A stretch of 64,000 bases of DNA from a virus (taxonomy: Duplodnaviria > Caudoviricetes): the IMG/VR virus record IMGVR_UViG_3300029705_000021. The stretch is one strand, 5' to 3'. The translations under genes and the position numbers were made by a program. The notes beneath the pieces are model-generated. The model did not search any database. It was not told where the DNA came from and saw only the letters and a list, made by a program, of their open reading frames with translations. Shown here in pieces: positions 3,001-63,551 of the stretch (its first letter is position 1; each line of letters opens with the position of its first letter).

Positions 3001-5768
3001 GTAATGGTGTGACAATAAATACAACGTATTACCCAATGATACGTAGAGCAGAAATTGCAGATAGTACCTTTGAACCTTATAAAGAACACGTTGAATGGAT
3101 ACCACTTAGTAAACCTTTAAGAAGTATTGGTGATGTTAAGGACGAAATCGTATATCAAGATGGTGTATATGGTGTATTGAGAAATTATACCGATGATACA
3201 TATGATGGTTCAGATGACGAAAGTTTAGGTGCAAATTCAACTATAGCTTGGATTTTAAATTCAAGATATAATGTCACAGAAGATAGAGATAAAGCTTTAT
3301 GTACGCATTACACAAATAATCCTAATGTTTCAGTATATAACAATGCGTCAGCAGGCTCAAATTTATCAAATGGAGAATTTGCTCTAGGAACAAGTACTAT
3401 AGCAACAGCAAGATTTTATTTCAAAAACGATAGTATTACTAGTCTTGATTTATGGAAAACATGGTTACAAGCTAACCCTATTAGAATGACATATAGACTT
3501 GCAAATCCAATATTTGAACCATTTGAAGATCAATCTCCATTCTATAATATCAAGACATATAACAATGTAACTCATATATTTATAACAGATGATGCAGAAA
3601 CAAATGTAACATATTATAGAAATTCAACAGATGGTCAAGCTGTATATGATTTAATAAGTAAAGCTACATCAACAGATGGTCAAGCTGTATATGATTTAAT
3701 AAGTAAAGCTACAAATCTTTTAGATGAAGATATTACTGATTTAAATGAAAAGGTAGAATCTTATAATGAAGAAGTAAATGATAGAATTGATGACATGAAA
3801 GTAAATGATGAGTCTTCAGGAAGTCCTATTTTATTAACAGATAGTGCTGATGGAAATCTTATTAACTTTGAATGTACAGGTGGAAGTTCGCAGAAGAGTT
3901 ACAGTGGAAAGAATTTGTTAGAGAATGATGCAACATCACAGACAGTAGGTGGACTTACATTCACAGTAAATGATGATGGAAGTATTAAGGTAAGTGGCAC
4001 AGTAACAGGTGCTAATAATTTACAAATTAAAACCCTTACACTAGCAGCAGGTACTTATGTGTTAAGTGGTATGGAAAATGTAAGTGGTTCAGGCGATATG
4101 GTAATGAGGGTATATGATGTAACGAATAGTAAGATAATAGCAGATTTAAGCAAAGGTTCAACTTCAATTATCTTTACACTTTCAAGCGAAACTACTTTGA
4201 GTATATATATAAACTTTAACACAGTAGGTATAACATATAGTGGTACAATTTATCCAATGATTTCAGTGGAAGGTGGAAACTATGAGCCATATACAGGTGT
4301 ACAGCCAAGCCCTAATCCTTCATATCCACAGCTTATCAAGTCAAAGGGTGATTGTGGGTGGAATGATGGTGAATATTTACAAGGCAGATATGATGGTACA
4401 GGCACATTTATATCATCAAGTAACTATATCTGTAATAAGAACTTAATACCTTGTAATGAAGGTGATGTTGTGAAATTTGCTTATGAAACTACATTAGGAC
4501 AAATTATCATAGGTTTTTATGATAAAGACAAGAATTTTATCAGCAGTTCATATAACCTTAGTCAAAGTGAATATGGGGTTACAGCTCCTACTAATGCTGC
4601 ATATTCTTATTGGAATGCTAATTTAAGTGGTATCACCCCATCCAACGCAAAGAAAATTGTTGTTACGATAAATGGTACTTATACTGTTAAGTTGACTAGC
4701 ATAGGTAAAAATCAATTTGACGAAAGTCAGTTACTTTTAGCTAGTGGGTGGACTTATAGTGATGGGGTTTATAGTGGTTCTATTTGGGAACTCTATAAAG
4801 TATTTAAAAATGGATTTGACTTGCCTAAGTTCCTTACCAATACACAATACACAATATCGTATTATGCGAAAACCGATACTGTTGGAAATAATTCAAGATT
4901 AAGAATATATTATACAGATGGTACTGTTGGCGAATTAGGTTTAGGGAGTTCAACAACAGAATATCAGTATGTAAAATTAATAACTTTAAGTGGTAAAACC
5001 ATACAGAGAATAGGTTATACCTATGGTTCAGATGCAACTATTTACATCAAAAACTTCCAAATCGAAGTAGGTTCAACAGCAACCGAATATAAGAAGTTTG
5101 AGGAACACACCGAATGGATACCACTTGCAGAGCCTTTGCGTGGTATTGGCGATAGTGCTGATACTATCAAGGCTACAGATGACTTGTATAGAGGTCATAG
5201 GAAATTTAAAGAGGTTGTGCTTGATGGTTCAGCAGATTGGGTTTTATCAACAACATTTGTCGGTGCTGTTTATGTAAAAACATTACCTTACGGATTAAAA
5301 CCATTTGGATTAGGATTATGTGATAAATTTACTTATGTAAGTAGTGATTATGCTTACAATAAGGGTAAATTTATGATTGACTCTAACAGTATTCGTTTTT
5401 GGATTCAAGATACAGCATTTGAGAGTATTGATGAGGTAAGAAGTTGGTTTAATGAAAACCCTGTTACTGTATTATATGAGATTGCAGAGGAAGAAATTGA
5501 AGAGCTAGACCAAACACCATTCTATAACCTAAAAACCTTCGAGGGTGTGACGTATATATCAGCGAGTGATGATATGGATATGGTGGTTGAATACTATCGT
5601 AACTCTAATACAGGACAAGCTATGGCTGATTTAGATGTTAAGGTTAATAATCATATTCTAAATTTAGACTTTACTCCTACAGTTAATGATAATGGTAAAA
5701 TACTTGGAATTGTAGATGGTAAAATTTCGTTAATTACTATTACAAATGGAAATGAGGTGAACTATTAA
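3..5768 (+). CDS. Large modular tail fibre / receptor-binding-like protein, 5' truncated by the window edge
   Basis: The frame is open from position 3, so the ATG at 261 is internal. An approximately 690-aa module repeats, marked by EPYxGxxxSPxPxYPQxIKSxGDxGWxDGExLQG near 190, 2280 and 4285. It has beta-rich GKNLL segments and coiled-coil linkers, and sits next to LRR and lysis genes. Confidence 0.7.
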   Translation, partial: LRVCYTDDTNVLLNFANDGSQTLFVTDSSKSVKSLVGVNNVGIATFEYEYFGIQEGICTLEDFEPYVGVHSSPSPDYPQDIKSVGDMGWFDGELLQGYRAKGTLTSVTNHVCSKNFVPCKEGDNIKLAYEENVSQLAIFFYDENMVYISSSYNTNQSEYEVIAPTNACYFDWFINKGSITPSNTKKIVVTINGTYAIKMKSTGKNLLSSDNIITYINANVNNGVVTQSSADTATSVVFKLQTTKNDSYNGEISSNLTVTSTGRYSKKFTKTKDFNGFRFGLNGTDTDTLVKFGVEHLIDDKEYVLSFEVTNITQGSISWKNMQLEIGSEATDYESYKENIEYIPINEPLRSINNVRDEIVCVDNVYGVLRKSGCTHVTSVASKYNTTATNYFYYIETISNLNLKTIVQCNNLIKNNYSQVNGKAIRNVGLSIYRGKLGINVGYYLSANNIDTMNTWLAENPTYMYYQLTETVFEPFENQTIFNNILAYNPTLISATDDMEMEIKYFTNSVDGQLAYEAINKVKNDLNEEILSLDGDITTINDNITRIDGDITTINDNITRIDEDITTLDKKVVLNNTELNDTINSMNLSDKSEGNSILLTNSIDSEVIDFKAYGRSEQVNYTGKHLLKSTLTTTTSNGVTCTDNGDGTYALNGTPSEDTIFNVYADTDLINLLNNYNGQTLNIIGGTSSSIAVCIYIKSESTEFENTSLDRNISRTFTVPTDTVTSASIQIRLKVNTPLSNNVVKPMITTDLTAKYEDYEPYVGGIPSPNPDYPQDIKSVGDMGWFDGELLQGYHSSSSGTYTNSIGYVCSKNMMPCKNGDTIKLIYEETANGLSFVYFDENGTFISKESVNYVSELIGTIPTDARFFHININQSSITPSTAKKIVVIINDTYAVKVKSTGKNLLPSFRSRTASSLTFASNEKGAVAITGTSTSTASPGEIVKLKAGDYILSGASDIANITTSINYLRVIVNGKYYMDKGDGVAFSLEEETEVIVQIVVGNGVTINTTYYPMIRRAEIADSTFEPYKEHVEWIPLSKPLRSIGDVKDEIVYQDGVYGVLRNYTDDTYDGSDDESLGANSTIAWILNSRYNVTEDRDKALCTHYTNNPNVSVYNNASAGSNLSNGEFALGTSTIATARFYFKNDSITSLDLWKTWLQANPIRMTYRLANPIFEPFEDQSPFYNIKTYNNVTHIFITDDAETNVTYYRNSTDGQAVYDLISKATSTDGQAVYDLISKATNLLDEDITDLNEKVESYNEEVNDRIDDMKVNDESSGSPILLTDSADGNLINFECTGGSSQKSYSGKNLLENDATSQTVGGLTFTVNDDGSIKVSGTVTGANNLQIKTLTLAAGTYVLSGMENVSGSGDMVMRVYDVTNSKIIADLSKGSTSIIFTLSSETTLSIYINFNTVGITYSGTIYPMISVEGGNYEPYTGVQPSPNPSYPQLIKSKGDCGWNDGEYLQGRYDGTGTFISSSNYICNKNLIPCNEGDVVKFAYETTLGQIIIGFYDKDKNFISSSYNLSQSEYGVTAPTNAAYSYWNANLSGITPSNAKKIVVTINGTYTVKLTSIGKNQFDESQLLLASGWTYSDGVYSGSIWELYKVFKNGFDLPKFLTNTQYTISYYAKTDTVGNNSRLRIYYTDGTVGELGLGSSTTEYQYVKLITLSGKTIQRIGYTYGSDATIYIKNFQIEVGSTATEYKKFEEHTEWIPLAEPLRGIGDSADTIKATDDLYRGHRKFKEVVLDGSADWVLSTTFVGAVYVKTLPYGLKPFGLGLCDKFTYVSSDYAYNKGKFMIDSNSIRFWIQDTAFESIDEVRSWFNENPVTVLYEIAEEEIEELDQTPFYNLKTFEGVTYISASDDMDMVVEYYRNSNTGQAMADLDVKVNNHILNLDFTPTVNDNGKILGIVDGKISLITITNGNEVNY
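1601..1701 (+). repeat. 42-bp in-frame tandem repeat (about 2.5 copies, DGDITTINDNITRI)
   Basis: Direct repeat agatggagatattactactataaatgataatattactagaat; 14 aa equals two heptads. Confidence 0.9.
3624..3713 (+). repeat. Perfect 45-bp in-frame tandem duplication (STDGQAVYDLISKAT x2)
   Basis: tcaacagatggtcaagctgtatatgatttaataagtaaagctaca occurs twice in tandem. Confidence 0.9.
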
Positions 5769-6913
5769 TGGCTAACGTATTTGTTGAAGAATCTTATTTA
5801 CAAGACATTGCAAATGCAATTAGAACAAAAACTGATACTACTGATACTATGAAAGTTTCTGAAATGGCTGAGAAGATTGAGGGAATTGAAGCTGGTGGTG
5901 ATATTACAGCATTGGTTGATAAATCAATTACTGAATGTACTTTACCTGAAGGAATAAATATTGGAGATTATGCTTTTTATGGTTGTACAAATTTAGCATT
6001 AACTTCATTACCTGAAGGGGTTACTATTGGAAGATATATTTTTAGTGGTTGTACTAATTTAGAATTAACTTCATTACCAGATAGTATAACTATAATTAAT
6101 GTTGGTGCTTTTCAAAATTGTACTAATTTAGCATTAACTTCATTGCCTGAAGGAGTTACTAGTGTTGGTGATTATGCTTTTGAAAGTTGTACTAATTTAG
6201 CATTAACTTCATTACCTGATGGTGTTACTTATATTGGAACTGAAGCTTTTTATTATTGTACAAAATTAGCATTAACTTCATTGCCTGACGGTGTTACTTA
6301 TATTGGAAAATCTGCTTTCGTAAATTGTACTAATTTAGAATTAACTTCATTACCTGAAAATGTTACTGATATTGGAGATTATGCTTTTCAAAATTGTACA
6401 AATTTAGCATTAACTTCATTACCTACTAGTATAACTAAAATTAATAATGGTACTTTTTATGGTTGTAAAAACATAAGAATAACTTCATTACCTGATAGTG
6501 TTACTAGTATTGGAGAACATGCTTTTTATAATTGTACTAGTTTAACACAATTTCCAACATCAACTACAGTTACTACTATTGAAAGATATGCTTTTTGTGG
6601 TTGCAATAGAATGGCTTATGTTTCATTTCCAAATACATTAACAAGTATTGGAGATTATGCTTTTAAAGGTTGTACAAATTTAGCATTAACTTCATTACCT
6701 GAAAATGTTACTACTATTGGAAAACAAGCTTTTTATGGTAGTACTTTGATGAGAACTTTAACTTTTAATGGAACACCTACTTCTATTGCTTCAAATGCTT
6801 TTGGTAATTGTACTAATTTAAGAACAATTAACGTACCTTGGGCAGAGGGAGCTGTAGCTAATGCACCTTGGGGAGCAACTAATGCAACTATTAATTATAA
6901 CTATACTAGTTAA
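5768..6913 (+). CDS. BspA-type leucine-rich repeat (LRR_5) protein, probably a virion adhesin
   Basis: About 13 repeats of 23 aa (LPEGVTxIGDYAFxxCTNLALTS). The N-terminus LQDIANAIRTK is typical of phage tail accessory proteins. Confidence 0.85.
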   Translation: MANVFVEESYLQDIANAIRTKTDTTDTMKVSEMAEKIEGIEAGGDITALVDKSITECTLPEGINIGDYAFYGCTNLALTSLPEGVTIGRYIFSGCTNLELTSLPDSITIINVGAFQNCTNLALTSLPEGVTSVGDYAFESCTNLALTSLPDGVTYIGTEAFYYCTKLALTSLPDGVTYIGKSAFVNCTNLELTSLPENVTDIGDYAFQNCTNLALTSLPTSITKINNGTFYGCKNIRITSLPDSVTSIGEHAFYNCTSLTQFPTSTTVTTIERYAFCGCNRMAYVSFPNTLTSIGDYAFKGCTNLALTSLPENVTTIGKQAFYGSTLMRTLTFNGTPTSIASNAFGNCTNLRTINVPWAEGAVANAPWGATNATINYNYTS

Positions 6914-54349: not shown

Positions 54350-55615
54350 TTATCCATGATATTTTACTAAAAACTCATTATCAACAGCTTTAAAACTATG
54401 AACACCATCTAAACTTCTGAACACAAGTCCTTCTCTCATACCACCATAAGTTGCAGCTTCACCACCAGCCATAGCCAACACTTCTTCACAAGTATCAGGA
54501 AGAACAATATCAGTTGCTACAATTGGAACTGTTGGAACATTATATTTGTCCATAAGTTCTTTCATTTCAATAGGATTAAGGCGTTTTGTTGTTCCATCTT
54601 TGTATCCAAAAATTACATTGAACACTTCGAATACATGCTCTTTTAAACCATAATCTCTTTTCTGAATTCCTTCTCCAAATGTTTCACCCTGAATAGTTAC
54701 AAATTCATATTCATCTGTAAGTAAAGCTTCTAAAATATTTTTAATTGAATATTTATCTGCCATTTCAGTATAAACATTTATATCATACCACGAACCATCT
54801 TTACGATTTGTCATGACAACGTTTCTAGAACAAACAAAATATTCTTGATTTTTACCATGACCTTTTAAAGACATTGTGGTGCTCGTCCCATCTCGTTTTT
54901 CTGTACCGATCCACTTAGTGTTAATAGAATGTACATGTGAAAAACAGTTTTGAACTCTCTCTTCGTCTGTCTTAACAATATGTGAAGGGAAACTCTTAAC
55001 ACCATTCTTTTTATCTCCACCAAGAATTAAATACAATAGTTTCTTAGCAAACACATGCTTCATACACCAACGACCAAATCTACTCTTTGCAAGTTTAGGA
55101 TGTCTATTCATCATACGTTGATATTTTGCATTTGGATTATTCTTGTTGCTTTTTCTCTTATTATCTTCTGGATCTGCATATGTAACTCCTAATTTTGATG
55201 TAAGGAAATCACCTTCTTCAAATGATTCAATTCCACCAGTTTCAGTCTCTGCTACAATAGTCATGCCATATGAATCTGCATGAATTGTCCAACCAAAATC
55301 TTGAGCAGACATTAATAGTCCTTGTGAATAGAAATTACCAATTTTATTTCCTTCTGCATCTTTTAAGGCAAACTTTTGTGTCTTGATTTTTCCATGATAT
55401 TTTTCCGTAAAAGCAAACTCTGGTTTAGAGGTGTCGAGTTTTGAATCAATTTCAAAATAAATTCCTAAGTCACCTGGCTTAAAAGCACCAACTGGGATCA
55501 TACACGTCCATCCACCTACTTTAGCACACTCAACTCTGTCTCTTCCATGAATCGGTTCAATACTATCAACTCTTACAACATAAACTAATTCTCTTTGTCC
55601 ATCTTTGTTTAACAT
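54350..55615 (-). CDS. ATP-dependent RNA ligase (DRB0094/Rnl5-like, with an N-terminal OB domain)
   Basis: Nucleotidyltransferase motifs TEKRDGTS, QGETFG, FEVFNV, REGLVFR, SFKAV; YFEIDS and KTDEERVQN. Confidence 0.9.
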   Translation of the reverse strand: MLNKDGQRELVYVVRVDSIEPIHGRDRVECAKVGGWTCMIPVGAFKPGDLGIYFEIDSKLDTSKPEFAFTEKYHGKIKTQKFALKDAEGNKIGNFYSQGLLMSAQDFGWTIHADSYGMTIVAETETGGIESFEEGDFLTSKLGVTYADPEDNKRKSNKNNPNAKYQRMMNRHPKLAKSRFGRWCMKHVFAKKLLYLILGGDKKNGVKSFPSHIVKTDEERVQNCFSHVHSINTKWIGTEKRDGTSTTMSLKGHGKNQEYFVCSRNVVMTNRKDGSWYDINVYTEMADKYSIKNILEALLTDEYEFVTIQGETFGEGIQKRDYGLKEHVFEVFNVIFGYKDGTTKRLNPIEMKELMDKYNVPTVPIVATDIVLPDTCEEVLAMAGGEAATYGGMREGLVFRSLDGVHSFKAVDNEFLVKYHG

Positions 55616-57441: not shown

Positions 57442-57484
57442 TGTATTCTCCTTTCTTATAAAATTAGTTAGTTTAAACTAAGAA

Positions 57485-57559
57485 TTACGATTAATAGATT
57501 CGAACTATTGACCTCCACTTTTTTATATAGTGGTGCTCTCGCCACTGAGCTAAATCGCA
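57485..57559 (-). tRNA. tRNA-like gene with an aberrant 9-nt anticodon loop (AUAUAAAAA)
   Basis: Acceptor TGCGATT/AATCGTA, D arm GCTC/GAGC, anticodon stem CCACT/AGTGG, T arm AATAG-TTCGAAT-CTATT. Confidence 0.75.
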
Positions 57560-57617
57560 ACTGAATTCATACTTTAATTAAAGTCACTCATAAATCTGCG
57601 CACCTATTATGAGTAAA

Positions 57618-57689
57618 CTCTAGTAACGAGAATCGAACTCGTGACATGTGGATTTCCGTCCACTGTTCTGCCAACTGAACTATACTAGA
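57618..57689 (-). tRNA. tRNA-like gene (Asn-like body) with an aberrant 6-nt anticodon loop (CGGAAA)
   Basis: Acceptor TCTAGTA/TACTAGA, G73, D arm GTTC/GAAC, stem GTGGA/TCCAC, T arm ACGAG-TTCGATT-CTCGT. Confidence 0.75.
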
Positions 57690-57699
57690 GTATAAAACA

Positions 57700-58648: not shown

Positions 58649-58897
58649 AGATATAATACCGACACACCATACGGTATCTTGATTGCTTTCACTATGCCTT
58701 TGTAATCCTCGCTTCCGCAATCTTTCTCGTCTATTCTTCTGTTGGCATACAGGACGATGGACATTCGTAATACTCTATAATGTAACTGCTAGTTTTCCGA
58801 CCTATTCTAACCCACCTCAAAGGTAACAGTCCGTATAATTATAAAGCGCAGGCTTACTCCACACCTATCTGGTTTATCGAGCGAAGACAGCTCGGCT

Positions 58898-58985
58898 TGT
58901 TAGAGGAAGGATTTGAACCTTCAAGATATTTCCTATCTACTAAGTAGTACTCACTCAATGCCTTACCATTTCGAGCCACTCTAAC
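58898..58985 (-). tRNA. Class II tRNA-like gene with a degenerate anticodon arm (loop GAGTACT, nominal GTA, no U33)
   Basis: GTTAGAG/CTCTAAC acceptor, variable hairpin AGATA/TATCT, T arm GAAGG-TTCAAAT-CCTTC. Confidence 0.65.
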
Positions 58986-59111
58986 AGATTGTGGCAAATG
59001 CTTAAAGTAGACCGCCACTCTTCTACACATAGCGCATTTATAAGACCATATACTCAAACTCACTGCGCTGTTTTGTTTACCTTGTGAGACCCATTCGTAT
59101 ATGGAATTTTT

Positions 59112-59264: not shown

Positions 59265-60770
59265 TTAAATTACTTCTTTTAATGCTTCTTCTACCATGTT
59301 ATAACGTTCTTTATTAAGTTCTGCAATTAAACACTTATATGGATCAACTTCACCATTCATAACCATATTAATTAAGTTTACACTGTATCCAGACATCAAT
59401 ACAACGCCATATTCATTGCTTTGTAATGGGATAACATTTCTAGAACCAGATCCTGCTACATTCCAAAAGATTAATCTTGGAAGATGATAGTTATGTGCTT
59501 TGTACATATCACTGATATTTTCAAATAAAGCTTTTGTAAAGTTATGACTATGCGCATCAAACTGCATATCACTGATTACCACAATATTTCTAGGCATTTC
59601 TTCTTGTGGAAGATTATTCTTAATAGCAACATCTAAAACAAGTTTAAAAACTGCTTCAATATTTGTATTGCTACAATCATCTTCTTTATATGTCTTTACA
59701 AGCTTATCATGTAAATTATCATATCCAGACAAATCAATTAATTTAGGTCTTGCACTAAAAGTAATAAACTGATTAGCAAACTGTCCTTCACATCTTTCAG
59801 ACATATAAATTGCTAATGCTGTACTAACATCTAATGGTTTTCCACTATCAGCCCATGACATACTACCAGAACCATCTCTAACAACTAATGTATTGCCAGT
59901 TGATTCAAAATTCGGAAGTGCTTTCCACATTTCTTCTAATGCAATATCCTTATTTTGTAAGTAATATCCTCTGCCATATTTATGTACAATTTCATCTGGG
60001 AACAGAACTTTTGAATTAATCTTAACATTCTTATCTCCACGTTCAAGAGCTGCCAAATACTCTCTACGTCTTTCTTCATCGTTTCTAAGGAATGCACTGT
60101 TGTAAATAAGGTTACTACGACTAGGTACTGCTGAGTAATTAATCTCATTCCACTGTTTAGCAGACATCTTTACTTCAACTACATCTAAGTAAGCACGAAG
60201 TTTAGATAAAGTTTTTCTGTATTGTCTCTCAGTCATGCCAATTTCTTTATAAATAATCTTAGCAAGTCTTTTTGTTTCTTTAGAAGAAGCGTTAACACTT
60301 GGAAGCCATTTTGCAATAAGACTACATGGTTTATTGTCCATCATATTCTTGGCATCTTCATTAAGCTGCTTCTTAATAATTGCAATAACGTCAGTCTTTA
60401 ATTCTGTATCAAGTAAACCTAATACATCATCATATCTACCAAACTCTGGAATTAAAGCAATTACTGCCTTAGCAACAGATGGATGATTCTTTGCTAAATA
60501 TTTCATGATTACTCTAAAAGTTCTTCTCTCGCCAATTCCTTCACGAGCATCTCTAACATAAAATAACCACTTCATTGCTAACATCTTGTTCTCATAAAAT
60601 GCATCTACAAATTTTGCAGCAATTGTATCTTCTGTCATTTTTCTTAAAGTTGTAACTTGAAAATTAAGATCTAACAAATTTTTGCCAGAAGTCTTATATC
60701 CAATTGCTCCATTTGTAGTAATAGCTTTTTCATTTTTCATTTCGTTTTTTAATCCATCCATAAAACTCAT
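59265..60770 (-). CDS. TROVE/Ro60-like protein (DUF2828-type helical repeat plus vWA/MIDAS domain)
   Basis: TTNGA, LFYVRDAREGIGER, FGRYDD, IAKWLPS, YRKTLS; vWA motifs VVRDGSGSM, ITFS, TNIEAVF, ISDMQFD, IFWNV. Confidence 0.85.
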   Translation of the reverse strand: MSFMDGLKNEMKNEKAITTNGAIGYKTSGKNLLDLNFQVTTLRKMTEDTIAAKFVDAFYENKMLAMKWLFYVRDAREGIGERRTFRVIMKYLAKNHPSVAKAVIALIPEFGRYDDVLGLLDTELKTDVIAIIKKQLNEDAKNMMDNKPCSLIAKWLPSVNASSKETKRLAKIIYKEIGMTERQYRKTLSKLRAYLDVVEVKMSAKQWNEINYSAVPSRSNLIYNSAFLRNDEERRREYLAALERGDKNVKINSKVLFPDEIVHKYGRGYYLQNKDIALEEMWKALPNFESTGNTLVVRDGSGSMSWADSGKPLDVSTALAIYMSERCEGQFANQFITFSARPKLIDLSGYDNLHDKLVKTYKEDDCSNTNIEAVFKLVLDVAIKNNLPQEEMPRNIVVISDMQFDAHSHNFTKALFENISDMYKAHNYHLPRLIFWNVAGSGSRNVIPLQSNEYGVVLMSGYSVNLINMVMNGEVDPYKCLIAELNKERYNMVEEALKEVI

Positions 60771-60810: not shown

Positions 60811-60912
60811 CAAGACACTTTAATGCACCAGATATTCTGGCTACTGGATTTGAACCAGATTAAAACTTTTGCAGAGTTTGTATTTACCATTTAACTTTGC
60901 TGTAAGTGCCTT
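60811..60912 (-). ncRNA. ACAGCAA-motif RNA enclosing an acceptor-less tRNA-Cys(GCA) (D-like loop, anticodon arm, T arm)
   Basis: AAGGCACTT-ACAGCAA...AAATGGTA...AAACT-CTGCAAA-AGTTT...CTGG-TTCAAAT-CCAG...AAGTGTCTTG. Confidence 0.8.
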
Positions 60913-60924
60913 TATGGAATTAAT

Positions 60925-61043
60925 GCAGAGTGGGAAGATTCGAACTTCCGTCTCGGTCTTAACAGGACAATTGTAAAATTGCAGTTGAAGTTTTTTTTCA
61001 AAACTCAATTAATTACGTGTTCTATCCGCTGAACTACACTCCA
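60925..61043 (-). tRNA. tRNA-Asn(GTT)-like gene with a 47-nt motif insertion (60969-61015) in the anticodon stem
   Basis: Removing the insert restores CGGTC-CTGTTAA-GACCG. The insert has GAGTTTTG/AAAACTTC then ACTGCAA. Confidence 0.8.
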
Positions 61044-61058
61044 CTTATTTTATTATTA

Positions 61059-61126
61059 CAAGACGGTTTTAAGACTATTAAAATATTTACAGTATTCTCA
61101 AGTTTTAATATTGCTGTATCCGTCTT
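61059..61126 (-). ncRNA. ACAGCAA-motif RNA carrying a Tyr(GTA) anticodon stem-loop
   Basis: AAGACGG-AT-ACAGCAA...AGAATA-CTGTAAA-TATTTT...CCGTCTTG. Confidence 0.75.
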
Positions 61127-61129
61127 AAA

Positions 61130-61253
61130 GTCGGGATGTGGGACTCGAACCCACGACCACGTGCTCCCCAAGCAATAGAAAAAAATTGCTGTTTACGTCT
61201 TTTACAAGACACATTATCTTTTTACGTGCTCTAACCAGCTGAGCTAATCCCGA
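61130..61253 (-). tRNA. tRNA-Pro(GGG)-like gene with a 50-nt motif insertion (61175-61224) in the anticodon stem
   Basis: Removing the insert restores CGTGC-TTGGGGA-GCACG. The insert has GTGTCTTG-TAA-AAGACGT-AA-ACAGCAA. Confidence 0.85.
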
Positions 61254-61256
61254 CAG

Positions 61257-61394
61257 TGAGGAAGATAGGATTCGAACCTATACGTCATTTAAGACAGGAG
61301 ATTTTCAGTCTCCACTATTTAAAAGTTGCTGTAAATGTCTTGCTAGACACTTTTGTGAATTTTATCCTGCGTCTGCCAGTTCCGCCACTTCCTC
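61257..61394 (-). tRNA. tRNA with a Leu-type body, GAA (Phe) anticodon and an approximately 54-nt motif insertion (about 61312-61365)
   Basis: D arm GCGGAACTGGCAGACGC, long variable arm, A73; GGAGA-CTGAAAA-TCTCC. The insert has GTGTCT-AGCA-AGACAT-TT-ACAGCAA. Confidence 0.8.
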
Positions 61395-61411
61395 ATGTTT
61401 GATGGCTTTGT

Positions 61412-61527
61412 TGGAGCAATTTGGAATCGAACCAAAGGTAAAAACCTGCTGAATGTTTTCAAAATTAAAATTGCTGTAAGCGATTGCCATCCTATTCGCT
61501 TTATAAACCGCCATCCAGACTTGCTCC
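61412..61527 (-). ncRNA. Degenerate tRNA-like RNA with an internal ACAGCAA-motif hairpin
   Basis: Acceptor GGAGCAA/TTGCTCC, T arm TTTGG-TTCGATT-CCAAA, internal AGCGA/TCGCT-T-ACAGCAA; D and anticodon arms eroded. Confidence 0.6.
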
Positions 61528-61545
61528 ATATTATTTAGTTTTTTA

Positions 61546-61608
61546 CAAGACACTTTAAACTTATCAGATCCCCAATCAGATGTTTTATTCGATTGCTGTT
61601 TGTGTCTT
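61546..61608 (-). ncRNA. ACAGCAA-motif RNA carrying a Pro(GGG) anticodon stem-loop
   Basis: AAGACAC-AA-ACAGCAA...ATCTGA-TTGGGGA-TCTGAT...GTGTCTTG. Confidence 0.8.
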
Positions 61609-61646
61609 TAAACATAGGCTCAACATCAAGCCTATAGATTAAAAGC

Positions 61647-61781
61647 TTACATTGAAGCTTCCATATTTCTTATTTCTCTTTTGAGCTTTTTAACAGCACC
61701 TGGACATTTGATGTTCTTATTACTTGCCTCAAGCTTCTGTAATCTGTTCTTCTTTAATGCTAAAATCTCTGTCTGTGTCAT
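61647..61781 (-). CDS. 44-aa basic protein inside the RNA array, missed by the ORF track (MTQTEILALKKNRLQKLEASNKNIKCPGAVKKLKREIRNMEASM)
   Basis: AAGGAG RBS, ATG...TAA, followed by a hairpin. Confidence 0.7.
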   Translation of the reverse strand: MTQTEILALKKNRLQKLEASNKNIKCPGAVKKLKREIRNMEASM

Positions 61782-61852
61782 TCTTATTTCTCCTTGTTAT
61801 AAATTTTTAAGTAATCATTCACAAATTTTTTAGTTGTGTATATTTACTTGAA

Positions 61853-61925
61853 CAGGGCTAGTTGGATTCGAACCAACGAGATGCAGGAGTCAAAGTCCTG
61901 TGCCTTACCGCTTGGCGATAGCCCT
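61853..61925 (-). tRNA. tRNA-Gln(TTG)
   Basis: Canonical cloverleaf, CAGGA-CTTTGAC-TCCTG. Confidence 0.92.
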
Positions 61926-62018
61926 AGACACTTGGTTTTTTAAAGATGACCAAGCAAACATCTAATCTATTTTTACTAGAAAGGAGGCGTATAGGAGATA
62001 TATTGATTTATCTCCGAG

Positions 62019-62090
62019 TGGGTCATGTGGGACTCGAACCCACGACTCTCAAATTAAAAGTTTGATACTCTACCACTGAGTTAATGACCC
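62019..62090 (-). tRNA. tRNA-Lys(TTT)
   Basis: Canonical cloverleaf, TCAAA-CTTTTAA-TTTGA. Confidence 0.92.
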
Positions 62091-62095
62091 ATATA

Positions 62096-62163
62096 CAAGG
62101 CGGCTATTTTGGCTATCACAAATTAAAAGTTTGTTGCTTGTTCAGATTTGCTGTAACCGCCTT
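62096..62163 (-). ncRNA. ACAGCAA-motif RNA carrying a Lys(TTT) anticodon stem-loop
   Basis: AAGGCGG-TT-ACAGCAA...ACAAA-CTTTTAA-TTTGT...CCGCCTTG. Confidence 0.85.
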
Positions 62164-62319: not shown

Positions 62320-62589
62320 ATTATATCATAACTGTTTTTATTTGTCAAGAACTTTTTTCATTTTTTAAAATTAATTAGTCTTAATTATTTTTTAAAGCTT
62401 TGAGATATTTTCTCTGCTCTTGACTCTTCAATGATATCATACTTGTCAAATTTTGTCAAGCACTTTTTTCAAATTTTTTGTAAATAAAATTTTAGTTTGT
62501 TTAGTAGCATATTATGTGTAAGAAACTCAACAATCAAGTGGTTCTCTTAAGCACAGTTATATATTATCATAACTTCCAAATAATGTCAA
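62320..62589 (-). promoter_or_regulatory. Three tandem sigmaA-type promoters feeding the tRNA/motif-RNA/TROVE operon
   Basis: TTGACA-17-TATAAT (62320-62348), TTGACA-17-TATCAT (62431-62459) and TTGACA-17-TAATAT (62561-62589), all with extended TG. Confidence 0.75.
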
Positions 62590-62618
62590 TAGTTTTTTCA
62601 AAAATATTTTTAATTAGT

Positions 62619-63551
62619 TTAGTGAGCAGCTAGATCTGCTTCGTGCAACAAATCTAATGATTTAATTAGTTCATCACCAAGCAACAATCTGTCTTTTTCT
62701 CTCGCCTTATCACTATCTCGCCAATCCATAAAATACTTCATATGTAAATTAATAAGTAAAGATACATACAAAAGATCTTTATCGCTCCATTCAGGATGCA
62801 TTTTTCTTACATAGAATAAGCTTAGGTAAGCTCCAACATTATGATGACCATAGAATTTAGCATCACCATAAATTTCTCCATTATCATCAATATCATAAAA
62901 CTTCGTACTAGGCTTACCACAATCATGTAACAGTGTAGCTGTAATCAATCTTATATCATTTGTTCTATCCTTAATATAATCACAAGCAGCGAGCATATGA
63001 CTTCCAACAGTCAATGAATGATGAATATTATCATGAGATATCACACGCCATCTGCACATATCATCTTTAATATTGTATTCAAATCCTGGTAAACCTTTAT
63101 ATTTCCACCAAACAATCTGAATATCATCAAATCCTTCAGTATACCAAGGAGTCTCGAAGCTTTTATACATTCTCTCAAGAACTTCTTCAGGAACATGTCT
63201 ATCTCTAGCACAGTTATTCGCTAAGCAAAACTCATATGGGGTAGCAAATAAAACGCAAATCTTTTCACAAGAAATGCCTTTAAGCTCATTATTCAGAAAA
63301 TGCACTCTTTTCTTGCGTGAAAGATTTGTAGCATCATATATAACATTCTTACCAGCTCTCAAGTCGTCCTTAATTCTCTGATGTAATATCTTGAATACCA
63401 ATTCATTCTTACTCTGGTCGTTCACATCACCTAATTCTGCTCTAATTTCATCGCTAGATAAAACAACCCAGTCTTTATTGTATTTATATTGTTCGCAATA
63501 TGTAGATTTCCCCGATGCAGGTAAACCCACTGTAACATATATTTTACTCAT
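62619..63551 (-). CDS. Polynucleotide kinase (AAA_33) fused to an HD phosphoesterase; RNA end-healing enzyme
   Basis: GLPASGKST, SSDEIR, YDATNL, NCARDR; HSLTVGSH, LLHDCGKP, FYGHHNVG, LHEAD. Confidence 0.85.
   Translation of the reverse strand: MSKIYVTVGLPASGKSTYCEQYKYNKDWVVLSSDEIRAELGDVNDQSKNELVFKILHQRIKDDLRAGKNVIYDATNLSRKKRVHFLNNELKGISCEKICVLFATPYEFCLANNCARDRHVPEEVLERMYKSFETPWYTEGFDDIQIVWWKYKGLPGFEYNIKDDMCRWRVISHDNIHHSLTVGSHMLAACDYIKDRTNDIRLITATLLHDCGKPSTKFYDIDDNGEIYGDAKFYGHHNVGAYLSLFYVRKMHPEWSDKDLLYVSLLINLHMKYFMDWRDSDKAREKDRLLLGDELIKSLDLLHEADLAAH

Follow-up and report, generated by a model that had tools for sequence, protein, structure and literature searches.

Bacterial immunity favors the anticodon loops of transfer RNAs (tRNAs) as targets, as in the case of PrrC, PARIS and retron effectors, and phages answer anticodon nucleases with replacement tRNAs and repair enzymes. 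PrrC, which cuts tRNA-Lys, is countered in phage T4 by Pnkp and Rnl1. The PARIS nuclease AriB cuts the Lys(UUU), Thr(UGU) and Asn(GUU) tRNAs and does not require tRNA modifications (PMC12409363), and phage T5 tRNAs counter this nuclease (PMC11464382, PMC12409363). For both PrrC and gamma-toxin, an anticodon stem-loop is the smallest substrate needed, and synthetic anticodon stem-loop minihelices serve as substrates of PrrC, gamma-toxin and colicin E5 (PMC2275089). In addition, Thermus phage phiLo is known to encode Ro60 together with Yrl1/2 (PMC12135203). Here, we describe a locus of a gut phage with features of all these systems: an array of small RNAs beside the gene for a protein with a predicted Ro60-like fold, in which some of the RNAs carry a bare anticodon arm on a common RNA handle. 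The locus was found in the 3′ 64 kb of a 106.7-kb phage record (IMG/VR record IMGVR_UViG_3300029705_000021, Caudoviricetes; ~29% GC); these 64,000 nucleotides (nt), the whole stretch analyzed, are referred to below as the window.

Three RNAs of this type, designated cartridges, were identified on the minus strand, at 62163-62097, 61608-61547 and 61126-61060. All three share a handle, composed of a 7-bp closing helix (AAGRCNN/NNGYCTT), 2 nt and the tag ACAGCAA, and in each the sole structured cargo consists of a stem of 5 bp and a loop of 7 nt, whose sequence is CUUUUAA in the Lys unit, UUGGGGA in the Pro unit and CUGUAAA in the Tyr unit. Their coordinates are as follows.

62096-62163, minus strand: Lys cartridge; helix 62163-62157 with 62103-62097, tag 62154-62148, arm 62134-62118, loop 62129-62123.
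61546-61608, minus strand: Pro cartridge; helix 61608-61602 with 61553-61547, tag 61599-61593, arm 61580-61564, loop 61575-61569.
61059-61126, minus strand: Tyr cartridge; helix 61126-61120 with 61066-61060, tag ACAGCAA, arm 61097-61081, loop 61092-61086.

An original prediction, based on the letters of this DNA, had described tagged RNAs of 63-68 nt containing only an anticodon stem-loop, and we found these three units as described, with a length of 62-67 nt. The Lys cartridge (handle AAGGCGG/CCGCCUU, with a conserved G trailing at 62096) has the arm ACAAA-CUUUUAA-UUUGU and ends 6 nt before a tRNA-Lys(UUU) gene (62090-62018). Its predicted likeness to the real tRNA-Lys arm, UCAAA-CUUUUAA-UUUGA, was borne out: the two arms agree at 15 of 17 positions and differ by a single flipped pair. 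The arm of the Pro cartridge, UCUGA-UUGGGGA-UCUGA, has a central U.U mismatch, and its loop does repeat that of a handle-bearing tRNA-Pro(GGG) in the array (61171-61165). The Tyr cartridge has the arm GAAUA-CUGUAAA-UAUUU with one G.U pair; the competing AU helix suspected for this unit (UAUUAAAA/UUUUAAUA) is indeed possible in the sequence. The argument that GGG anticodons are hard to explain as codon supply proved weak, as GGG would read CCU, and CCU makes up 160 of the 356 Pro codons (the codon CCC is nearly absent, with 3 codons). No cmscan or ARAGORN match to the tRNA cloverleaf (RF00005) was obtained for the three cartridges, in which the anticodon arm alone is present, and an Rfam scan of the array region at E <= 5 matched no family other than tRNA; the handle is covered by none. 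We also rejected a CRISPR-like repeat (no Cas genes), a group I intron (no Rfam intron match in the array stretch) and a terminator (no U-tracts).

Occurrence of anticodon arms was assessed in two sets of homologous loci. The first comprised 80 IMG/VR loci whose protein homologs are 50-63% identical (some counts are over 81 viral loci), and the second comprised 80 loci from bacterial genomes and metagenome-assembled genomes, mostly Lachnospiraceae and other Clostridia, with slight overlap with the first. An anticodon arm was defined as a 5-bp stem closing a 7-nt Y-U-NNN-R-N loop, and dinucleotide shuffles served as controls. The 117 distinct short units of the first set formed 74 sequence clusters; 35 of the 74 cluster representatives had an anticodon arm, compared to 7.2 +/- 2.4 in shuffles (maximum 15 in 500 shuffles). 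For the second set, the figures were 23 of 57 clusters and 4.6 +/- 2.0. Thus, the enrichment of YU-NNN-RN loops across homologous arrays, which had been proposed as a check, was found at about five times the shuffled level and was replicated in both sets. At least one anticodon-arm cartridge was present in 59 of 81 viral loci. When no loop filter was applied, 7 nt was the modal loop size on stems of at least 5 bp, and these unfiltered 7-nt loops had C32 in 22 of 36 cases (background C, 11%), U33 in 25, A37 in 24 and A38 in 24, with variable positions 34-36. G36 loops had G37 and U32 in 6 of 6 cases, as in real tRNA-Pro, and the others had A37 in 34 of 36 (p = 5e-6). Cartridge loops therefore follow identity-specific tRNA loop rules (Y32, U33, R37 and the 32/37 combination). 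In addition, 38 of 49 loops started 14-18 nt past the tag. In the alignment, the arm was 98.6% paired, a value that is partly due to sequence selection and was therefore not counted as independent evidence. These data, new in the present analysis, identify anticodon arms as a recurrent minimal cargo, quantified and replicated.

A sub-class of cartridges in L012, L032, L046, L047, L091 and L093 had the arm wrapped as UGG-A-[arm]-AUAA-CCA. This wrap forms an extra 3-4-bp helix with a 3′-side bulge, paired in 57% of aligned cells, and is reminiscent of the junction of the D-stem, position 26 and variable loop of tRNA.

Comparison of orthologous units showed which parts of the cartridges are retained. 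We used contigs whose proteins were 93%, 86% and 74% identical to the 501-residue protein encoded next to the array. Orthologs of the Lys unit in L090 and L091 kept both handle and loop, and the loop-closing pair A31-U39 was flipped to U-A, a compensatory change that is independent of the selection criteria. The closest relative, L090, kept the Tyr unit (AAAUA-CUGUAAA-UAUUU), and the next relative, L091, had a Lys-type arm under the same handle. Cargo of the Pro unit was replaced under the same handle in both L090 and L091; homologs of this cargo occurred under a different handle, with the loops UUAGGGA in L010 and CUUAAAA in L034, and retained the central stem mismatch. Among the near-identical phages L012, L013 and L017, orthologous cartridges (~3895-3954 and 5496-5554) differed in the anticodon alone, with loops CUUGUAA, CUGUUAA/G and CUAUUAA on an unchanged stem. 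These comparisons indicate that cargo identity turns over fast and that the architecture is constant. A stem common to many cartridges, AUAGA/UCUAU, was seen under five different loops.

Anticodon identities were unevenly represented. Lys UUU led both sets (10 of 36 and 6 of 23 positive clusters), followed by Asn GUU and Pro UGG, then Thr UGU and Tyr GUA, in the first set, and by Ser UGA, then Leu UAA and Gly UCC, in the second. Lys UUU made up 10 of 41 in the tally of mimic anticodons versus 11 of 208 tRNAs called by ARAGORN at the same loci (~25% vs 5%; Fisher p = 5e-4), and the commonest real tRNAs (Met, Leu, Gln and Gly) were absent from the first-set mimics. The idea that cartridges copy neighboring tRNA loops held for the Lys and Pro cases of the window and failed as a general rule: family-wide, a same-locus anticodon match was found for 7 of 76, compared to 9.5 +/- 3.2 under permutation. 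The Lys pair of the window (15/17 identical, 6 nt apart) is a local case. Mimic anticodons do overlap with the published AriB targets Lys UUU, Thr UGU and Asn GUU, which is a correlation and not a test.

The handle is closely linked to the protein gene. In the 80 viral loci, we found 217 copies of ACAGCAA within 500 nt upstream of the gene, whereas the opposite strand had hardly any, and 231 distinct tags gave the consensus W-AAGRCRC-WW-ACAGCAA-WUUUA. Handles were present in 79 of 81 viral loci (median four) and in 58 of 80 genome loci. The handle helix was 100% paired in a 29-unit alignment, with six of its seven pairs changed on both sides. As with Y RNAs, the RNA genes adjoin the protein gene and their 5′ and 3′ ends form a closing stem. 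The handle also occurs beside homologs in cultured phages, including Felixounavirus adrianh, Bacillus phage Nate, Staphylococcus SEP9, Listeria LP-125 and Enterococcus VRE9_4. Considering this linkage, the adjacent DUF2828/vWA protein very probably binds the handle, and the three cartridges, which the original prediction had viewed in isolation, belong to a wider family of presumed RNA partners of this Ro60-like protein. Literature searches on DUF2828 and on decoy or tRNA-mimic RNAs against anticodon nucleases returned no description of the handle-RNA family.

Several handle RNAs differ from the cartridges in cargo. Escherichia phage adrianh (L175) has four unannotated handle RNAs (5214-5290, 5381-5445, 5836-5910 and 5923-6050) with an AGACCNN helix and ACAGCAA, located in gaps of the tRNA array downstream of the vWFA/DUF2828 gene; their cargo is not clearly anticodon-like. 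Handle RNAs of 117-122 nt (helix UAGUCAC) were found downstream of the protein gene at L011 5947, L032 6513, L035 6970 and L055 6516. These RNAs carry as cargo most of a tRNA body, with the D, anticodon and T arms and without the acceptor stem, and are thus the members closest to YrlA. In L060 (~6374-6461), a handle-like unit located downstream of the protein gene contains in its cargo CACCUCCUU, the anti-Shine-Dalgarno string of 16S rRNA, which may be there by chance or may be a ribosome-binding site of the opposite strand seen in reverse.

The protein encoded next to the array is assigned by Pfam to DUF2828 and DUF7788/vWA and not to TROVE.

59265-60770, minus strand: DUF2828 plus DUF7788/vWA protein, 501 amino acids (aa), by Pfam.

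Its MIDAS (metal ion-dependent adhesion site) motif, DGSGS at residues 299-303, is intact and invariant. An AlphaFold model built from 18 homologs had a predicted local distance difference test (pLDDT) score of 72, and the ten best fold matches of this model in the PDB were all Ro60/TROVE proteins (E values 4e-7 to 2e-3, TM ~0.4), among them Thermus phage phiLo Ro60 and Xenopus Ro60 with RNA. A sequence-profile search of the PDB with the 501-aa protein found nothing. Given a fold match without Pfam TROVE or a PDB sequence match, the protein is predicted to be Ro60-like in fold and is not a demonstrated TROVE member. The DUF2828 family has more than 5,000 relatives and is found in 711 cultured-phage records. 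A functional lead comes from the Felixounavirus Bas63, whose Ro60-like gp130 is encoded directly upstream of tRNA genes and counters the Ppl defense system (PMC11482910). Felixounavirus adrianh has a 32%-identical syntenic gene with four handle RNAs among its tRNAs, and we infer from this synteny that gp130 belongs to the DUF2828 family.

The array itself contains eight RNAs with the handle signature (62163-60811, minus strand), with canonical tRNA-Lys(UUU) and tRNA-Gln(UUG) interspersed, and lies upstream of the DUF2828/vWA gene, the final unit being 40 nt before it. Four of the eight, namely the three cartridges and the RNA at 60912-60811, are stand-alone units of the form 5′-AAGRCNN-NN-ACAGCAA-cargo-NNGYCUU-G. 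The other four are tRNA-like genes, in which the handle helix is closed by a short loop and lies, with the tag, within the anticodon stem or next to it. One design thus underlies both arrangements, which are related by circular permutation. The strict handle pattern had six matches in the 106.7-kb record, all of them in the array, and the reversed-pattern control had none. Besides the cartridges, the array and its upstream region contain the following features.

62561-62589, 62431-62459 and 62320-62348, minus strand: three tandem sigma-70-like promoters (62589-62561, 10/12; 62459-62431, 11/12; 62348-62320, 12/12 with TG), as judged from consensus matches alone.
62018-62090, minus strand: canonical tRNA-Lys(UUU) without a handle, 74.5 bits.
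61852-61926, minus strand: canonical tRNA-Gln(UUG) inside the array.
61647-61781, minus strand: conserved open reading frame of 44 aa, between tRNA-Gln and the Pro cartridge, with no Pfam match.
61410-61503, minus strand: tRNA-like RNA with acceptor stem and T arm, in which the D/anticodon region is a hairpin plus ACAGCAA tag.
61257-61395, minus strand: handle-bearing tRNA with loop CUGAAAA and a long variable arm; handle hairpin and tag are just 5′ of the anticodon stem.
61130-61253, minus strand: handle-bearing tRNA-Pro(GGG), loop UUGGGGA at 61171-61165.
60925-61043, minus strand: handle-bearing tRNA-like gene with the variant tag ACUGCAA; tRNA model, 33.8 bits.
60811-60912, minus strand: handle RNA with a Cys anticodon arm (CUGCAAA) and a T arm as cargo, without acceptor stem.

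The promoter-like units (TTGACA-17-TATAAT) sit in a ~120-nt repeated stretch upstream of the array (62320-62620, minus strand), an arrangement suggesting that transcription may be very strong. The tRNA-Lys call made by ARAGORN for the RNA at 61410-61503 is doubtful. In tRNA-Pro(GGG), read by eye, a 50-nt insertion of hairpin and tag separates anticodon-stem positions 29 and 30. The 3′ part of its tag, AGCAAU, is complementary to AUUGCU directly 5′ of the anticodon loop (61172-61195, minus strand), and GCAAA/UUUGC occurs at the matching spot in L091 (~3677-3700); such an alternative pairing could mask the tag or the anticodon stem. The Cys-arm RNA, the last unit before the protein gene, has a partial tRNA match (60843-60898, 22.8 bits). 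The 44-aa gene was called at the same place in L090 (2886-3020) and L091 (2294-2428). Handle-free tRNA-like genes with abnormal anticodon loops were also observed at 57484-57690 and 58897-58986 (minus strand), including a 9-nt loop, a 6-nt loop and a tRNA-Tyr call without U33.

The locus lies between two candidate RNA repair genes, one encoding a kinase-HD fusion and the other an ATP-dependent RNA ligase.

62619-63551, minus strand: P-loop kinase (AAA_33/KTI12) fused to an HD phosphohydrolase, candidate RNA end-healing enzyme.
54350-55615, minus strand: ATP-dependent RNA ligase (RNA_ligase plus PHA02142 OB domain), candidate sealing enzyme.

In ~19 of 80 viral loci, the DUF2828 gene is immediately followed by a gene for a ligase homolog; in cultured phages, genes for RtcB, a metallophosphatase or a phosphoesterase are found near homologs. 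This linkage to repair genes parallels the bacterial rsr-yrlBA-rtcBA operon.

We propose the following model. The array would be transcribed from strong promoters and cut into units of two modules. One module, a covarying 7-bp helix closed by AAG/CUU with a 2-nt spacer and single-stranded ACAGCAA, is the presumed protein site; the other, a bare anticodon stem-loop 14-18 nt from the tag, would reproduce the loop of a particular tRNA (Lys UUU, Pro GGG or Tyr GUA). The resulting particles would display anticodon loops as baits that compete as substrates for, or inhibit, host enzymes that attack such loops, namely anticodon nucleases of defense and toxin systems, and the kinase-HD protein and RNA ligase of the phage would reseal both baits and real tRNAs. 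We assign a probability of roughly 40% to the idea that cartridges act as baits. In its favor are the sufficiency of anticodon stem-loops as substrates of some anticodon nucleases, the Lys UUU bias, the linked repair genes and the effect of gp130 on Ppl. An anti-defense role of the particle is likely, judging from the ligase linkage, the nearby repair genes and gp130, and these results favor anticodon arms as baits for nucleases directed at anticodons. A more elaborate version would be a programmable device, in which a Ro60-like ring displays interchangeable anticodon cartridges that trap or exhaust tRNA-cutting immune nucleases, three-base swaps retarget it, and kinase-HD and ligase recycle cut cartridges; this version is tentative and somewhat doubtful.

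Several observations weigh against baits. The Lys mimic of the window resembles the phage's own tRNA-Lys more than a typical host one, whereas a decoy would be expected to imitate the target that is susceptible. Base modifications, which may be missing from a short RNA, are required by some anticodon nucleases. Single-sequence folding recovered the handle helix and not the AU-rich arms (z -0.6 to -1.8), and RNAalifold gave the same result, so that the arms rest on comparative evidence, that is, the shuffle tests and the orthologs. About half of the short cargos are not anticodon-like, implying that the family is not only about anticodons. Moreover, gp130 alone, moved into T7 without phage RNAs, improves T7 plating on a Ppl strain (PMC11482910), which means that the protein can act without anticodon cargo. 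The last two points, together with the handles without clear anticodon arms beside cultured-phage homologs, are what would be expected if the RNAs occupied or regulated a Ro60-like ring, in the way that Y RNAs gate Ro60, and the protein were the active anti-defense factor, with the cargo sequence of minor importance beyond folding. Such a gate would, however, leave the 5-fold enrichment of anticodon loops, the identity-specific 32/37 rules and the fixed tag distance unexplained, and we consider it quite improbable. That same fixed distance of 14-18 nt would fit an adaptor similar to Y RNAs, in which the handle would bind the ring and a tRNA-binding partner would be brought to it by the anticodon arm. 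This partner could be the ligase or kinase-HD of the phage, a modification enzyme of the host, a synthetase or PNPase, and the particle would serve to organize how damaged tRNAs are repaired or turned over, not to absorb a nuclease. The predicted Ro60-like fold and the synteny with RNA ligase and other repair genes point in this direction, as do bacterial Y RNAs, which link Ro60 to PNPase and of which YrlA mimics tRNA (PMC4201824), and a phage Ro60 with Y-like RNAs that engages host PNPase (PMC12135203). On the other hand, a bare anticodon arm is a poor ligand for most enzymes that recognize the tRNA body, rapid anticodon switching between close relatives resembles an arms race more than a housekeeping scaffold, and the Lys UUU skew is not predicted; an adaptor is therefore rather unlikely.

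Two further explanations treat the arms as products of tRNA genes. If the handle were an intron-like or split-gene element and kinase-HD and ligase spliced handle-bearing tRNAs into functional ones, cartridges would be by-products or spare parts. Handles do lie inside the anticodon stem of otherwise complete tRNAs, and healing and sealing enzymes are encoded nearby; but stand-alone units lack exons and are circular permutations, each closed by a helix of its own, they are conserved as units with covarying helices, no splicing endonuclease was found and inspection by eye revealed no bulge-helix-bulge motif, all of which makes splicing very improbable. Alternatively, the arms might be functionless remnants of tRNA genes disrupted by handles. 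A graded series from whole tRNA to T arm plus anticodon arm to arm alone, and a Lys arm nearly identical to that of the neighboring tRNA, would agree with decay. It is nonetheless extremely improbable given the compensatory changes in orthologs, a loop consensus kept while the anticodon varies, replication of anticodon-arm enrichment in two data sets, and the fact that mimics are usually without a same-anticodon tRNA nearby.

If the bait model is correct, a genome-encoded, protein-tethered anticodon arm would be a third phage answer to anticodon nucleases, and the large, uncharacterized DUF2828 family would gain a defined RNA partner and a role open to testing. As the cartridges are small and modular and can readily be synthesized, the idea lends itself to direct experiments. 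Through the handle, phage RNAs are also connected, at the level of a motif, with the unexplained Class I RNAs of social amoebae.

Compared to known systems, the cartridges combine familiar parts in a different way. Dictyostelid Class I RNAs (RF01414; PMC7919456) are similar in length (~60 nt), in a short covarying 5′/3′ stem with an AAG start and in a variable remainder. Unlike the phage RNAs, they come from eukaryotes and have an RRM protein as known binder, and anticodon mimicry has not been described for them. A search with RF01414 gave a best score of 13 bits (E 1.1; cut-off 41.5), and control genomes gave similar noise. Class I RNAs also have an 11-nt motif beside the 5′ strand. The text of PMC7919456 gives its invariant positions only (T3, C6, C9, A10 and A11), which fit ..UUACAGCAA, a resemblance at the level of the motif only.

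The locus resembles those of phages that defeat anticodon nucleases with tRNAs and repair enzymes in having a tRNA cluster, with Lys UUU, Thr UGU and Asn GUU prominent, and kinase/phosphatase and ligase genes alongside. However, the tRNAs of those phages are complete and chargeable and replace cut host tRNAs, whereas cartridges cannot be charged or decode and carry a protein handle. As an object, a cartridge arm is the same as the synthetic minihelices, in which a 5-bp stem and a 7-nt loop are enough for recognition and of which PrrC even prefers those with a weak stem (PMC2275089); the minihelices are laboratory constructs, while cartridges are genome-encoded and tethered to a handle.

The closest parallel is Ro60/Rsr with its Y RNAs (YrlA, RF02553). 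The predicted fold of the DUF2828/vWA protein resembles the ring-plus-vWA fold of Ro60, and both systems have small RNAs beside the protein gene, often in several copies, a 5′/3′ closing helix as the protein site (here presumed) with a variable tRNA-mimicking module, and a locus linked to RNA repair genes. They differ in the protein, which is DUF2828/DUF7788 by Pfam and not TROVE, and in the RNA signature, a helix plus ACAGCAA here and a bulged helix or CGAA motif in Y RNAs. The best match to the YrlA model had 20.2 bits (E 1.1; gathering threshold 69) and was on a tagged tRNA, not on a cartridge. YrlA mimics the T, D and acceptor body of tRNA without the anticodon arm, and the cartridges do the reverse, presenting the anticodon arm only. 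We regard them as a variant of Ro60/Y-RNA-like particles.

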